Source of the DNA: a virus
Length of the DNA stretch: 64,000 nucleotides
Direction: 5' to 3' (one strand)
Virus genome (UHGV): UHGV-0326727
The stretch's first letter is position 1. Each line of letters starts with the position of its first letter. Position numbers and translations under genes: made by a program. The notes under the pieces are model-generated. The model was not told the DNA's origin and searched no databases. It saw only the letters and a list, made by a program, of their open reading frames with translations. Below are positions 3,771 to 63,221 of this stretch, in pieces.

Positions 3771-4786
<1,016 letters not shown>

Positions 4787-5890
4787 TTATTCATAATCTC
4801 GTATAACGAGGCCAACAGGGAACTGTAAAGAACCTTTACGAGTCATCTTCTGGAACTGAACCGTCAAAGGTTTCCCGATAAACTCTTCAGGATGTTCAGC
4901 AAGATACTGTTTCTTCTCATGAGTAGTCTTCCATGAGACATCTACAAAGACGTTAGGAAGAGTCTCTACAACGAACTTGCCATGACCACGCTTATCAGTC
5001 TTTACACCAGTCACTTTAAACTCTTCAGTGTGCATCTTCTTGTGCTTAATCAAGAAGTATGAACGGTGACAACACTCATAGAAGGAGTCTTCAGAGATTG
5101 AACGGTACATTGCACCTTCAAACTTGGCTTCAACCCACTTATCATGAGCTTCATCAAACTCTTCCCAAGAATTTACACGACGAGACTTAACAGGAACAAC
5201 TTTACAGCCGTCTCTAAAGTCATTCAATGGTGAAGTCTCAATAATATCTCTACGCTCAGGCCACGTCTTAGTACTGTCACAGATATCGTACCAGTAAAAC
5301 TTGAGCAAGTGTCTGTCAGGATTGTCTTCATTTTTAATCATGGAGACGATATCTTCTAAGTCCCACCCATGAGCATAAATCTCTCCATCAAATTCATCAA
5401 CATCTTTGTGGAGCCTTAACATTGCCATAATGTCAGGTATTAGTTCAGTAGGGATTTTATAAACAGTATTCTCACGAGAGTATGCTGTAAATACACTACC
5501 AATGCTTAAGTGCCTCGAAATCCTACAACGGACACCATCAAGCTTCGGTTGAGCATCAGCAGGGAATTTCAAATACTTTGCATGACTAACCTTTGCAGCA
5601 TCATGAGCAAGCTGCACACCTACCTTCTCAGTATTCTGTGCAGACTCTTTTGTGTAAGCATAGCCTTTGCGGTCAACTTGCTTTTTATACTTAGCAGCAA
5701 CTTCAAAGAGAGCTTGCTGTTCAGCGTTACGCTCATTCTTTTTACCGATGTTTTTCGGTTCTGCTGTGTACTCTTCAAACATCATCTTGCCATTTTCTTT
5801 ACCGTAGGTTGTAATAACTTTGTCACCTACAGCAACGCATGACCAGACGTTAAAAGAGCCGTCTTTATTTTGTTTGTACAGTATTGTCAT
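4787..5890 (-). CDS. ATP-dependent DNA ligase (T7-like size)
   Basis: Nucleotidyltransferase motif I KLDGVR (PKLDGVRC), motif IV-like EGAMYRS, motif V-like LIKHKK; start set at MTILYKQ with GAGGA RBS. Confidence 0.65.
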   Translation of the reverse strand: MTILYKQNKDGSFNVWSCVAVGDKVITTYGKENGKMMFEEYTAEPKNIGKKNERNAEQQALFEVAAKYKKQVDRKGYAYTKESAQNTEKVGVQLAHDAAKVSHAKYLKFPADAQPKLDGVRCRISRHLSIGSVFTAYSRENTVYKIPTELIPDIMAMLRLHKDVDEFDGEIYAHGWDLEDIVSMIKNEDNPDRHLLKFYWYDICDSTKTWPERRDIIETSPLNDFRDGCKVVPVKSRRVNSWEEFDEAHDKWVEAKFEGAMYRSISEDSFYECCHRSYFLIKHKKMHTEEFKVTGVKTDKRGHGKFVVETLPNVFVDVSWKTTHEKKQYLAEHPEEFIGKPLTVQFQKMTRKGSLQFPVGLVIRDYE

Positions 5891-35888: not shown

Positions 35889-36437
35889 ATGAAGAAGTTG
35901 ATTCTAGGTTTGTGCTTAATGTTTACAGCACACTTATCTTATGCAGTTGACTGCCCAGAGCTATCAATTAGCCAAAAAGTAAACATGTTAAAAGCTTACC
36001 AGTATGGTGAGAATAATATGGGGAAGGGCTGGGGTATTACTCTAGCAGCTATAGCCTTACAAGAGTCAGAGTTAGGTCTGAAGGTAGAGAATAAAAAGAC
36101 CCATGACTATGGTATTTTCCAGAATCACTTGAAGACTGTTGTAAAGCGTAACAAAATTAGTCCTAATGTGGCTAAAAAGAAACTCTTAAAAGATTTTGAC
36201 TATGCAGCAAAAGAGACGCATAAAGAGCTTGAGTTTTGGACGAAGGTACATGGTCAACCAAAGTCAAAGAAGACTTTACAAAAAGTTTTAGCATCATATA
36301 ATGCTGGGTATTCGTACAAAATTCCTAAAGCTAAGAAATACTCTCAAGATGTCTACAACAATATGAAAGTTATTGCTCAATGTGAATTTGCAACAAACAT
36401 TTCTAAGGTAAATCATGAAAAAATTAAGAAAGTCTGA
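35889..36437 (+). CDS. secreted lytic transglycosylase-like protein
   Basis: Signal peptide MKKLILGLCLMFTAHLSYA; AIALQESELG and DYGIFQ resemble SLT-domain catalytic Glu and GLMQ motifs. Confidence 0.4.
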   Translation: MKKLILGLCLMFTAHLSYAVDCPELSISQKVNMLKAYQYGENNMGKGWGITLAAIALQESELGLKVENKKTHDYGIFQNHLKTVVKRNKISPNVAKKKLLKDFDYAAKETHKELEFWTKVHGQPKSKKTLQKVLASYNAGYSYKIPKAKKYSQDVYNNMKVIAQCEFATNISKVNHEKIKKV

Positions 36438-37110
36438 TGAAGTACTGTGTCATGCTTATGACTTACATCCTCATGAGTTAGGTCTTGATTCCTGTGTATG
36501 GACCCCAGAACAGTGCAGAGATTTTGAAGATACTGCAAGAGAGGTTGTATGCTCACTTGAAGAGTTCCACACATCAGAATCAATTGTGAACGTTGTGGAC
36601 AAAGAGACTGGACAATCTATAGGTGTAAGACGTGACAGTTTAGTCATAGTCAATAAAGACCTTGTAGAAAAAGGTAACCTTATCTTAGCAGACATTGATG
36701 GTGTTCTTACAAATTTTAATCACGAAGATTTCTCAACGGAATTGATTGATGGGTCATTTTCACAGTACACTAATTTACTTGACTCTGTAAGTGCAAAGCC
36801 AACGTATGTTTTCAATATTATTGATGCAATCTCTAATCATGCTGCCATTGGACTCTTGACAGCGAGGGGTGAATCTCAGAGAATACCTACTGAGATGTTT
36901 TTAAGGCATTACATAGAGCATGATTACATGCTTTTTATGCGTGGTTTTGGAACTAATTCTATAAGTGCAGAAAGTTTGAAAGTGAGGATGATTCAGTCTT
37001 GCATTCTGCCTTACTTTAATATAGTATGTTTTATAGAAGATACAGAGAAGAATGTTCAGAAGGTAAACAGAATCCTTCCACACATTAAAACCATGTTAGT
37101 TAAACATTGA
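36415..37110 (+). CDS. HAD-superfamily hydrolase-like protein
   Basis: DIDGVL matches HAD motif I DxDG(T/V); start uncertain (overlaps upstream gene). Confidence 0.4.
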   Translation: MKKLRKSDEVLCHAYDLHPHELGLDSCVWTPEQCRDFEDTAREVVCSLEEFHTSESIVNVVDKETGQSIGVRRDSLVIVNKDLVEKGNLILADIDGVLTNFNHEDFSTELIDGSFSQYTNLLDSVSAKPTYVFNIIDAISNHAAIGLLTARGESQRIPTEMFLRHYIEHDYMLFMRGFGTNSISAESLKVRMIQSCILPYFNIVCFIEDTEKNVQKVNRILPHIKTMLVKH

Positions 37111-37586
37111 GAGAAAAACTTATGAACAATATCATTACGGTAGCACTGGACGATACGACAAACAAATCTGTAGTAGTTCGTAAAATGATTCAAGGTAACT
37201 TTGAAGGTAAAATTTTTCGTGCTGTTAATGTAAAAGCTGATGGCAGTATTCGTGAATATCGTGCATTGTTGAATGTTAAAAAGCACGTAAAAGGTGCTGG
37301 TTCAACGACTGCACACAAAGAAAACCTGATGACTATTTATGATATGGGTAAGGCTTCAGAGTTAGGTGCTGAAGGTATCGTTAAAGAAGGTGCTCCGTAT
37401 CGCTCTTTCAATCTGGAAACTACTCTTATGCTTTCCTTTACAAGTGGTTCTAAAACAATCACTTACCTCTTTACTGATGCTGCAACGGTATCTGCTATCA
37501 AGGATAGCACTGTCAAAGCTGGCGTAGTTGCTGCTGCAAAAGCTTCTTCGATGGCTGCAAATATCCTTGCTAAAGTCCTCGGTTAA
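37107..37586 (+). CDS. hypothetical protein
   Basis: 159 aa ORF followed by a strong terminator. Confidence 0.35.
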   Translation: MREKLMNNIITVALDDTTNKSVVVRKMIQGNFEGKIFRAVNVKADGSIREYRALLNVKKHVKGAGSTTAHKENLMTIYDMGKASELGAEGIVKEGAPYRSFNLETTLMLSFTSGSKTITYLFTDAATVSAIKDSTVKAGVVAAAKASSMAANILAKVLG

Positions 37587-37597
37587 GGTTAAGATAC

Positions 37598-37619
37598 AGG
37601 CTCCTTCGGGAGCCTTTTT
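37598..37619 (+). terminator. rho-independent terminator
   Basis: aggctccttcgggagcct hairpin followed by TTTTT. Confidence 0.65.
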
Positions 37620-37638
37620 CATTTCAGGAGATTGTTAA

Positions 37639-37986
37639 ATGACATTTAAAGAGTTCTGTCAAGCCACTTTCATAATTGTTTTCTTAGTTGGAGCAGGTGT
37701 CTGGGGAGGATACTCTTACAGAGACTATCAAGTTGCTGAAGCTGAGCTAAATAATGAGAAACTAATAAGTGTTGCTAAAGATGCTTATCAGGAAGGTTTA
37801 GCCACACTCAGCACCAATTACAAAAATGATTTGAAAGATGTGCTTGCTAAGAATAAGCATACAAAAGAGGTACTAACATATGAAAAAACTAAGCCAGAGT
37901 TTTATAATGTTTGTGTTACTGATAATTATGTCAGGGTGTTCAACGAACAAAGTGAACAGTACATTCAAAAACTCCCAAGTAAGTGA
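37639..37986 (+). CDS. putative i-spanin (N-terminal TM, periplasmic domain)
   Basis: TM segment ATFIIVFLVGAGVWGG then charged helical region; downstream lipoprotein gene embedded out of frame. Confidence 0.4.
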   Translation: MTFKEFCQATFIIVFLVGAGVWGGYSYRDYQVAEAELNNEKLISVAKDAYQEGLATLSTNYKNDLKDVLAKNKHTKEVLTYEKTKPEFYNVCVTDNYVRVFNEQSEQYIQKLPSK

Positions 37987-38149
37987 GAGTGACAAGTACA
38001 CTCAAGAAGAGACAAGATTCATTGTCAAAGGTAATACTGGCAGTGATGTGGCAGCAGCCCTTGAGTTTTATCGTGATGGTTTTTACCAGTGCACAATAAA
38101 AGCTAATAACCTTATTGATATGATTTTATTAGGAAACAAACAGCAATGA
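37880..38149 (+). CDS. putative o-spanin / lipoprotein embedded in +1 frame
   Basis: MKKLSQSFIMFVLLIIMSGCS signal peptide with lipobox MSGC; starts inside the preceding gene. Confidence 0.4.
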   Translation: MKKLSQSFIMFVLLIIMSGCSTNKVNSTFKNSQVSESDKYTQEETRFIVKGNTGSDVAAALEFYRDGFYQCTIKANNLIDMILLGNKQQ

Positions 38150-38415
38150 CAGAGAATGAAGACACTTTCTATGTAGAAGGGTACTTACTGCTACCACGAC
38201 CAAAAGAAACTTATATGCGGTTTGATTTCTCACCAACCATTATGGATAATGTGATGTGTCATATCTTTATGCAAGGTGTCACAGCACAGCTTAAGCATGT
38301 TGGTAAAGAGTGCAAAATAAAGGTTGACACTCATCCAGAAATCAAAGAGAATCACTACGCATGGTTCTTACCAGACTCTAAAGAAATCTTAGCAGTTCTA
38401 AAAACGAGGAAATGA
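38146..38415 (+). CDS. hypothetical protein
   Basis: 89 aa ORF. Confidence 0.3.
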   Translation: MTENEDTFYVEGYLLLPRPKETYMRFDFSPTIMDNVMCHIFMQGVTAQLKHVGKECKIKVDTHPEIKENHYAWFLPDSKEILAVLKTRK

Positions 38416-38726
38416 TTATGCAATTCCAGCCAACAAATCGTGGATTTTCTTATGCAGAATTTAAAGATGCTAAAGGAGAGATTTGTACTTTACAAGAAAG
38501 TTCATCATATGAACCATGTATCTGGTTAGGTGCTAAAGAGGTCTCTGTTCAGTACCTAGATGGTGGCTGGAAAACACTTGATATCCCAGCATTAGTAGGC
38601 AAAGATTTTGTAGGTAACCAAAGAATGAAACTCAATCAAGAACAGGTAAAAGAACTGTTGCCGTACCTCCAATACTTTGCTGAAAATGGTGAATTACCAA
38701 CAGAGGAACTTACAAATGCAGATTAA
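38412..38726 (+). CDS. hypothetical protein
   Basis: 104 aa ORF. Confidence 0.3.
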   Translation: MIMQFQPTNRGFSYAEFKDAKGEICTLQESSSYEPCIWLGAKEVSVQYLDGGWKTLDIPALVGKDFVGNQRMKLNQEQVKELLPYLQYFAENGELPTEELTNAD

Positions 38727-39042
38727 CGGAAGAGATTTTGTAGCCGTTTACTACGAGAAAGATAAAGAAGTTGGCGTAGCACAAGTATCTTATGGTAATG
38801 GTAAGTGGTTGTATGGGACAATCGCAGTAGTCGGAACAAGAAGTGATACAAAAACTTTTAAAGACTGTGTTGACCTTCTTGAGGAATCCATCCATAATCA
38901 TTGGTGTCTGATATGGATGACTGACAACGAAGTGATAGAACGCTTCAAAAAGATTGGTATCAACATTGATAGCATTGAGCATGTTGACTTGTATGAGCTA
39001 ACTGAGAAGGTAAACTATGAAAGTAATACTAGCCAGAGATAA
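38677..39042 (+). CDS. hypothetical protein
   Basis: 121 aa ORF. Confidence 0.3.
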   Translation: MLKMVNYQQRNLQMQINGRDFVAVYYEKDKEVGVAQVSYGNGKWLYGTIAVVGTRSDTKTFKDCVDLLEESIHNHWCLIWMTDNEVIERFKKIGINIDSIEHVDLYELTEKVNYESNTSQR

Positions 39043-39443: not shown

Positions 39444-40229
39444 ATGGGTATTGTAAAAATCATCAATGGGGATATCTTCTCCGCATTTGATAAAGGTAAG
39501 TTTGATATTATTGGTCACGGTTGCAACTGTATGAATTTAATGGGTGCAGGTATCGCTGATAAGATTTCTAAACTTTACCCAAAAGCATATGAGACCGATA
39601 CAGAAGTTTATCTGTATGCAGGTGGTATAGGCCACAAACCCTGTGAAAATTTACTAGGCAATTTCTCTGTAGCACGTTTAAAACAAGGACGTATAGCTAA
39701 CCTTTACACTCAGCTTAAGACTGGTAAAGATGCCCGATACAGTGCTTTAGAGTCATCTTTGAAACAGCTTAACAGATACTGTGAAGTTAATCAGTTGAAG
39801 AAAGTTGGGCTACCTATGATTGGTGCAGGTATCGGTGGGCTAGACCCTCAAGCCGTCACCGTTATCATTAATCAGGTGATGAAGAGTGTAGATGTGTATC
39901 TGTATGTCTACGAAGGAGAGATGTACCACAAGTTACGCTCAGGTTGGAAGAACTACTGTGAACCAGAATACTTTGCAGGTGTAGTAGTGTTCACTGATGA
40001 TGCAGTTACCCTCTTCAGACGAAGAAAAGGTAAGATACATCAAAGTAACCCTCCGGTTGAAAAGATGTCTCTAAGTAACGCTCTAGTTACCCACCTGTCG
40101 AAGAGCAATCACAGAATTGCAGTAACATTTGGCAGTGATGCAGATACATATATCTATGCAAGAACTGATGAGGATGTTGAGGAAATTTTCTCTTCACCGG
40201 AAGTAACCTTCTTAGACGCAAAGAACTAA
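39444..40229 (+). CDS. macro-domain-like protein (putative ADP-ribose binding/processing)
   Basis: N-terminus IVKIINGDIFSAF...FDIIGHGCNCMNLMGAGIADKI parallels the macro-domain GDIT...VNAAN..LxGGGGVxxAI signature. Confidence 0.45.
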   Translation: MGIVKIINGDIFSAFDKGKFDIIGHGCNCMNLMGAGIADKISKLYPKAYETDTEVYLYAGGIGHKPCENLLGNFSVARLKQGRIANLYTQLKTGKDARYSALESSLKQLNRYCEVNQLKKVGLPMIGAGIGGLDPQAVTVIINQVMKSVDVYLYVYEGEMYHKLRSGWKNYCEPEYFAGVVVFTDDAVTLFRRRKGKIHQSNPPVEKMSLSNALVTHLSKSNHRIAVTFGSDADTYIYARTDEDVEEIFSSPEVTFLDAKN

Positions 40230-40289
40230 GAAACTCTGTAGAATATTCACAATAGGTTAAGCCTTTCTTATCTGGTAAATTTTTCAGGT

Positions 40290-40500
40290 AAGGAGGGCTT
40301 TTTCATTTCAGGATTGTGCAGGTAGAGTTCTGGACAGAAATCTGTAGAGAAAATTTTGAACTCCAAAGAGAAAATTCATTTTCAAACTGTGCAGGTAATC
40401 TCCAAAGAGCTTTTTCATTTTCAAAACGTGCAGACCCCGCTCAGGTCGGGCAAGAAAAATCATTTTAGAATTGTGCAGGTAGGTGGGTGCAGGTGGGGAT
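40290..40500. repeat. four direct repeats of a 25-bp motif (iteron-like)
   Basis: tcatttcaggattgtgcaggta / tcattttcaaactgtgcaggta / tcattttcaaaacgtgcaga / tcattttagaattgtgcaggta, plus extra gtgcaggtgggg; no ORF. Confidence 0.6.
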
Positions 40501-53609: not shown

Positions 53610-54074
53610 TTACTTTGGGTATACGCTGTCAAGATAAATGTCAGCTTCCATTCTACGTCTGTTTTTAAGACCATTTGAAGTGACCTTCTTACCTTTGACT
53701 GTAACCTTGTTCCACCACTGCATAGCTTCTGCACAACCTACCTTGTTACCATCATTGTGGCGCTTGATAAATGTAGAATCCTGCATAGCTGTGATACCGA
53801 TGTTGTATGTTTCACTTACAAGTGCATCGAACTCATTCTGAGAAGTTGGAGCTTTGATAGCTTTATTCACTGCTGCAACAAACTTCTCAACATCTGCGAG
53901 AAGATAATGTTCAGCTTGTTCAGCAGTAATTTTCATACCCATCTTAACAGGTTTTCCGTCAATACGGATTGTACCATAACCGATTGTTGGGAGTCCGGCA
54001 GAGTCTTCGTAAGCCTCTAACTTCAGACCTTCAAAGAACTTAATAGCCTCTAAACCTTTTCTTGAGAGTTGCAT
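53610..54074 (-). CDS. endolysin, GH24 lysozyme family
   Basis: 154 aa; FEGLKLEAYEDSAGLPTIGYGT matches the T4-lysozyme-type catalytic region (E...D...T, TIGYG). Confidence 0.8.
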   Translation of the reverse strand: MQLSRKGLEAIKFFEGLKLEAYEDSAGLPTIGYGTIRIDGKPVKMGMKITAEQAEHYLLADVEKFVAAVNKAIKAPTSQNEFDALVSETYNIGITAMQDSTFIKRHNDGNKVGCAEAMQWWNKVTVKGKKVTSNGLKNRRRMEADIYLDSVYPK

Positions 54075-63047: not shown

Positions 63048-63120
63048 GTGGCCTTATCATAAATGGTAATGACCCATGCTGTGAACATGGTCTATACGGG
63101 TTCAAATCCCGTAGGTCACC
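63048..63120 (+). tRNA. tRNA-His (anticodon GTG)
   Basis: Acceptor gtggcct/aggtcac, D-stem tcat/atga, anticodon stem ccatg/catgg perfect with loop ctGTGaa, discriminator C; CCA encoded. Confidence 0.75.
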
Positions 63121-63129
63121 CCAATTTAT

Positions 63130-63202
63130 AGTCCAAGTAGCTTATATGGTTAAAGCGCGTGTCTGAAAAACATGAGAAGAGGGTTCAAATCCCACTGGAC
63201 TA
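63130..63202 (+). tRNA. tRNA-Phe (anticodon GAA), slightly irregular acceptor/T junction
   Basis: D-stem gctt/aagc, anticodon stem cgtgt/acatg with loop ctGAAaa, T-loop TTCAAAT; acceptor agtccaa/ctggact with one unpaired base; CCA encoded. Confidence 0.6.
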
Positions 63203-63221
63203 CCAATTTCAAAGGTGCTTA

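Follow-up and report, generated by a model that had tools for sequence, protein, structure and literature searches.

A probable two-component spanin with overlapped genes, remote from the endolysin gene, in a Felix O1-like phage genome

The window analysed here, a 64,000-nucleotide stretch of DNA (UHGV virus genome UHGV-0326727), belongs to a Felixounavirus: its region 37000-39000 is 98% identical to phages NBEco005 and EC6, and shares 96-98% identity with the Felixounavirus genomes listed among 258 matching records (NBEco005, EC6, JN01, SME50, mio and others). Two ORFs are found here on the plus strand, positioned as a sequence-only reading had proposed from the ORF list and confirmed against the sequence. 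ORF1 (37639..37986, +) encodes 115 aa, and ORF2 (37880..38149, +) encodes a putative prolipoprotein of 89 aa in the +1 frame relative to ORF1. Both are recovered by tblastn and belong to the JH2 families of Kongari et al. [quoted passage not shown] A Shine-Dalgarno sequence, AGGAG (37626..37630, +), is read from the sequence 8 nt 5' of the i-spanin ATG, and is also given for Felix O1 in Kongari Table S1. The second, GAGGT (37869..37873, +), was likewise read from the sequence and lies within the i-spanin gene, 8 nt 5' of the o-spanin ATG, becoming AGAGGT (37868-37873) when the preceding A is included; this GAGGT-type site is the one tabulated for the o-spanins of EC6 and Felix O1 (Kongari Table S1, PMC6139136).

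Directly 5' of the i-spanin ribosome-binding site, an intrinsic-terminator-like hairpin (AGGCTCC-TTCG-GGAGCCT followed by TTTTTCATTTC; 37598..37623, +) closes the upstream gene, and a terminator is annotated at the equivalent place in the records of phages Mijalis and phiEa21-4. Terminator-like hairpins at 37598-37626 and 40259-40310 (+) are each followed by an identical 13-mer, CTTTTTCATTTCA. Its two copies may mark a repeated terminator/translation-start module, with the caveat that a count of two is not significant (10 of 100 shuffles reach it). A sigma-70 promoter scan returned 13 sites as against 12.9 in shuffled sequence, i.e. no excess.

The o-spanin gene starts 241 nt into the i-spanin gene and ends 163 nt beyond the i-spanin stop, which creates a dual-coding overlap of 107 nt (37880..37986, +) in which i-spanin residues 81-115 are encoded together with o-spanin residues 1-36, i.e. 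the signal peptide and linker of the latter. The other 163 of its 270 nt (about 60%) fall outside the i-spanin gene in the interval between two genes, where ORF2 is the sole coding frame. ORF2 had been described as an embedded gene in the manner of lambda Rz/Rz1. Its out-of-frame start inside ORF1 and the two-protein topology of the pair do agree with that description, but because the o-spanin gene runs beyond the i-spanin stop, the architecture is 'overlapped' (P2 LysB/LysC type) and not 'embedded' (lambda Rz/Rz1 type), according to the classes defined by Kongari et al. 2018 (PMC6139136).

The i-spanin begins MTFKEFCQATFIIVFLVGAGVWGGYSYRDY, and just one 19-residue window in it, F6-G24, is strongly hydrophobic (Kyte-Doolittle mean 1.75), in agreement with the N-terminal TM helix previously noticed. 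The rest of the protein (88-89 residues) is hydrophilic, and charged residues make up 25% of the whole. From these features we infer an N-in/C-out inner-membrane protein whose TM segment lies at approximately F6-G24 and whose periplasmic domain is about 88 aa long, the latter comprising a helix-rich N-terminal part and a conserved C-terminal motif, YEKTKPxFYNxC92xxDxYxxxFNE, whose C92 is invariant in an alignment of divergent homologues. A single-sequence AlphaFold2 model places helices at 27-71, at low confidence (pLDDT 51), and the periplasmic domain of the Felix O1 protein is about 66% helix when the columns of Kongari supplementary file 3 are taken as helix/strand counts (PMC6139136). The match to PHROG 1152, 'Rz-like spanin', is strong and covers the full length (residues 1-115, E=9e-42).

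The o-spanin begins MKKLSQSFIMFVLLIIMSGCSTNK and opens with a basic MKK region and a hydrophobic core that lead to the lipobox I-M-S-G-C20, such that the signal peptide spans residues 1-19. The junction MKKLSQSFIMFVLLIIMSG|C20-S21 fits a PROSITE-type lipobox rule (PS51257-like), so that the MSGC lipobox seen earlier is upheld as IMSG|C20. The +2 residue is Ser (S21) and not the Asp of inner-membrane retention. A LipoP-type signal is also on record for the EC6 and Felix O1 o-spanins (Kongari, PMC6139136). The mature protein of 70 aa is devoid of proline, carries one periplasmic Cys (C71) and ends in a conserved motif, EFYRDxFYxCxIKxNxLID. C20, S21 and C71 are invariant in the alignment, the first two across 7 divergent homologues. 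A C-terminal helix at 54-84 is modelled by single-sequence AlphaFold2, again at low confidence (pLDDT 49). The best PHROG is phrog_4180 (E=1.6e-50), a family of unknown function, and there is a weak match to phrog_456, 'Rz-like spanin' (E=1.9e-4). No Pfam or NCBIfam model scored above cut-off for either protein, and such matches as the o-spanin has in these libraries are to lipoprotein families that are unrelated to it, and cover no more than their N-terminal signal regions. About 96% of two-component spanins have at least one periplasmic cysteine for homotypic intermolecular disulfides; C92 and C71 provide a candidate in each protein.

An ORF of the size of ORF2 in an alternative frame carries little weight on its own, since the ORF list for this region holds numerous spurious ones of 30-115 aa, and in several GenBank records the o-spanin is left hypothetical, given a shorter start or omitted. 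It might thus be supposed that only the TM protein is real and that ORF2 is a chance open frame of an AT-rich genome, its hydrophobic start and cysteine there by luck. The comparative data make this supposition barely credible. By tblastn the ORF2 protein is recovered from 313 phage records, with identity falling to about 29-34%, and the i-spanin from 403, including phiEco32-type members at 31-37% identity. The frame, the lipobox Cys and the C-terminal motif are kept across genera, and the conserved o-spanin residues, C20, S21 and C71 among them, persist in phages whose DNA can no longer be aligned. The mean pairwise nucleotide difference among 6 Felix O1-like phages drops to 0.040 in the overlap, from 0.110 and 0.135 in the single-coding flanks, an approximately 3-fold reduction that is expected of two real genes. 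Together with this lowered diversity, the conservation across genera raises ORF2 above chance; the strong, correctly spaced Shine-Dalgarno sequence before it and the 60% of its length that lies outside ORF1 also speak against a fortuitous frame.

The loci compared were those of Felix O1, Citrobacter phage Mijalis, Hafnia phage SarahDanielle, Erwinia phage phiEa21-4, Pectobacterium phage Wc4 and the podovirus phiEco32. In every one of them a TM protein is followed by an overlapping lipoprotein ORF, with a lipobox of MSGC, ISGC, ASC or SAC. The overlap measures 116-137 nt in the Hafnia, Erwinia, Pectobacterium and phiEco32 phage homologues, in which protein identity has fallen to 21-36% for the i-spanin and 25-46% for the o-spanin, and the overlapped pair is also kept in Mooglevirus. 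In phage Wc4 the arrangement is that of a classical lysis cassette, with a P22-like, GH24-type endolysin gene at 94-561 followed by the pair at 569-928 and 801-1076.

The pair is already annotated and catalogued, and is ordinary for this group of phages. Several Felixounavirus GenBank records carry 'i-spanin' / 'o-spanin' or 'Rz-like spanin' at the syntenic position, and the Felix O1 counterparts are ORF6 and ORF7 (Felix01p014 and Felix01p015). The census of Kongari et al. 2018 places Felix01, FO1a and UAB_phi87 as one group in the Overlapped two-component class, and assigns EC6, Felix01, Moogle, Mushroom, wV8 and the FSL_SP phages to the 'JH2' i-spanin and o-spanin families, the phiEco32-type phages being in the JH2 i-spanin family only (PMC6139136). 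For Felix O1/EC6 its supplement, including Table S4, tabulates an i-spanin gene at 5330-5678, an o-spanin gene at 5571-5841 and an overlap of 107 nt, and the o-spanin is described with a 19-residue signal peptide, TMSG or IMSG before the Cys and a mature length of 70 residues, with one periplasmic cysteine per spanin protein (PMC6139136). The spanin-like reading of the two ORFs is thereby borne out by PHROG 1152, by GenBank annotation and by this census. The spanins of Felix O1, EC6 and wV8 (Felix01p014 and p015; JH2) are in essence the same genes as the pair in the window, with equal lengths (115 and 89 aa), the same 107-nt overlap, Shine-Dalgarno sequences, IMSG/TMSG lipobox and single periplasmic Cys in each protein, and few point substitutions as the only differences. 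The EC6 i-spanin is one residue off (A9 in the window, D9 in EC6), and the Felix O1 proteins are 97% (i-spanin) and 95.5% (o-spanin) identical by tblastn.

Annotation of the o-spanin is uneven in these relatives. In phage mio (extracted locus 3928-4149) a truncated start drops the basic N-region, in SarahDanielle (extracted locus 768-1284) both genes are labelled 'o-spanin', and in Wc4 the o-spanin gene (801-1076) is not annotated at all. For phage vB_Si_DR094 the o-spanin has been stated to be 'not found' (PMC8300805). A literature search on an overlapping o-spanin in Felixounavirus gave no match.

The endolysin gene of the window is distant from the pair, as had been pointed out from the sequence. 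It encodes a GH24-type enzyme of 154 aa (53610..54074, -; Pfam PF00959 Phage_lysozyme, E=3e-39), sits beside tail genes about 15.5 kb downstream of the spanin pair on the opposite strand, and has a 'lysin' annotated at its syntenic place in SME50. This distance had been regarded as an oddity, which it is not: of the lysis genes in Felix O1-like phages the Moogle paper (PMC4319497) says that they 'are scattered around the genome', so that remoteness of the spanins from the endolysin is the documented norm of the lineage, and T4 lysis genes are likewise scattered, with pseT.3/pseT.2 remote from e and t (Kongari Fig. 8 legend, PMC6139136). We attribute the position of the spanins, in an rII/nucleotide-metabolism region away from the endolysin, to this dispersal of lysis genes in the lineage, as in T4.

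Neighbours of the pair include rIIA and rIIB, as well as genes for a PNK-like phosphatase and a macro-domain protein. Directly 3' of rIIA/rIIB and 1.2 kb 5' of the spanins, a gene at 35889-36437 (+) encodes a protein of 182 aa with a secretory-looking signal peptide, MKKLILGLCLMFTAHLSYA|VD, that falls in phrog_600 and has a sub-threshold match to an SLT lytic transglycosylase (Pfam E=1.2e-3). It is called 'putative lysin' in phage mio, and a note in the Felix O1 record likens it to a protein of the T4 vs-regB region. It is possible, judging by these matches, that this gene is a second muralytic gene, at a far shorter distance from the spanins than that of the GH24 endolysin. The following gene, 36415-37110 (+), is a 'polynucleotide kinase' according to PHROG 3970 and has a HAD-type DIDGVLT motif with no Pfam match. 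Its product has no BLASTP similarity to T4 PseT (E=0.1), and we therefore rejected a shared T4-like linkage of spanins to pseT, the parallel being nominal only. Downstream of the spanins by 1.3 kb lies the macro-domain protein gene (39444-40229, +; PF01661, E=1e-7). A macro-domain gene (extracted locus 1939-2379) is immediately 3' of the homologous spanin pair in phiEco32, and a Tk.4-like 'phosphatase' (extracted locus 1084-1866; no Pfam match) holds the same place in phiEa21-4; a macro-domain/phosphatase gene 3' of the spanins may thus be a recurrent linkage. Elsewhere in the window 24 tRNA genes are clustered at 58867-63205 (+), as is typical of Felix O1-like phages.

This setting invites a different reading, namely that the two genes form a module for envelope modification or superinfection exclusion, expressed with the neighbouring rII/nucleotide-metabolism genes, its membrane protein and outer-membrane lipoprotein blocking receptors or DNA entry in the manner of T5 Llp or the Cor lipoproteins. 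The company of rIIA/rIIB, the PNK-like phosphatase and the macro-domain gene, far from the endolysin, would suit such a module, as would the unknown function of PHROG 4180, the lack of a predicted coiled coil (see below), and the fact that no lysis or complementation experiment for the JH2/Felix O1 spanin family was found in the literature searched. However, a spanin is recognized by exactly this combination, a TM protein and after it a lipoprotein in the +1 frame, and the combination is maintained as a pair across several genera, directly 3' of the endolysin in Wc4. The i-spanin matches a spanin PHROG strongly, PADLOC defence models gave no matches, and the T4 spanins also sit in an early-gene region, beside pseT. 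Moreover, in the Felix O1-like records examined nothing else is annotated as a candidate spanin, and the Kongari census names this very pair as the Felix O1 spanin (PMC6139136). On balance we regard an exclusion module as very unlikely, and interpret the two genes with high confidence as the two-component spanin of a Felix O1-like myophage, with overlapped architecture. Their function as a spanin is proposed from architecture, context and annotation.

For further comparison we considered the spanins of P2, T4 and lambda. P2 LysB/LysC is the prototype overlapped spanin, and by the definition of that architecture (PMC6139136) it is the system to which the pair is likened: in both, the o-spanin gene opens out of frame within the i-spanin gene and continues past its end, and a type II inner-membrane i-spanin is paired with an outer-membrane lipoprotein o-spanin. 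The two differ in that P2 forms a separate Kongari family and has its genes in a lysis cassette, whereas those of the window lie about 15.5 kb from the endolysin. The T4 proteins PseT.3 and PseT.2 are similar in size (117 and 99 aa, versus 115 and 89), and their genes too are detached from endolysin and holin in an early/nucleotide-metabolism region; in both cases the o-spanin exceeds Rz1 in length, and a C-terminal helix is predicted for it. In contrast, the T4 genes merely abut (4-nt overlap by RefSeq coordinates) and are classed as 'separated' while those of the window overlap extensively, and the periplasmic cysteines number 0 + 2 in T4 against 1 + 1 in the window. No homology was detectable between the i-spanin and PseT.3 (BLASTP E=17; hhalign probability 1%). 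The o-spanin and PseT.2 match marginally (BLASTP E=0.036; hhalign probability 64%), in an alignment that begins at the lipobox, and with this marginal match as the only one, membership in the T4 PseT.3/PseT.2 family was rejected.

Lambda Rz/Rz1 shares with the pair the two-protein topology, the presumed role in membrane fusion and the availability of periplasmic cysteines for homotypic disulfides. Rz1 is fully embedded in Rz and proline-rich, with a mature length of 40 aa, whereas the o-spanin of the window is overlapped, lacks proline and has a mature length of 70 aa; with 0 prolines in those 70 aa, an o-spanin of lambda Rz1 type (proline-rich and unstructured, with a central penta-proline stretch) was rejected. 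Lambda Rz also has two predicted coiled coils, and the Felix O1-type i-spanin has none. A periplasmic coiled coil had been put forward as a check on the spanin assignment. Published Pepcoil output (Kongari Table S3, PMC6139136) predicts 0 coils in the i-spanin of Felix O1, and our own heptad count is weak, at 4-6 of 8 a/d positions, with no clear coiled-coil signal. To let a missing coiled coil refute a spanin is nevertheless too strict, because many accepted i-spanins, e.g. those of N4, K1F and phiYeO3-12, score 0 coils as well (Kongari, PMC6139136).

Modelled on lambda Rz/Rz1 and T4 PseT.3/PseT.2, the i-spanin would span the inner membrane and expose about 88 residues to the periplasm. The o-spanin, whose +1-frame gene has a Shine-Dalgarno site of its own within the i-spanin gene, would be lipidated at C20 and Lol-sorted to the outer membrane, in whose inner leaflet it would sit with its 70 residues reaching inward. 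The two proteins would bind each other through the peptidoglycan mesh by way of their conserved C-terminal regions, and C92 and C71 would give rise to disulfide-linked homotypic dimers. Destruction of the murein by the holin and the distant GH24 endolysin would then free the complexes to fuse the inner and outer membranes and complete lysis. A variant on this theme, which is speculative and which we consider improbable, is that Felix O1-type spanins fuse membranes via a folded heterodimeric C-terminal domain, as opposed to the coiled-coil/proline-rich mode of lambda, or that they have an additional non-lytic role tied to the rII/macro-domain linkage. The folded-domain mode is conceivable because no coiled coil is predicted and because the proline-free o-spanin has a conserved Cys-containing C-terminal helix.

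Beyond correct annotation the significance of these findings is small. Calling both genes, with the long MKK start for the o-spanin, would mend a common annotation gap in Felixounavirus, where one gene or both are left hypothetical in several records; this is relevant because Felix O1-like phages serve in the biocontrol of Salmonella and E. coli. The Felix O1-type pair departs from the lambda paradigm, and could serve as a comparison case for membrane fusion by spanins.
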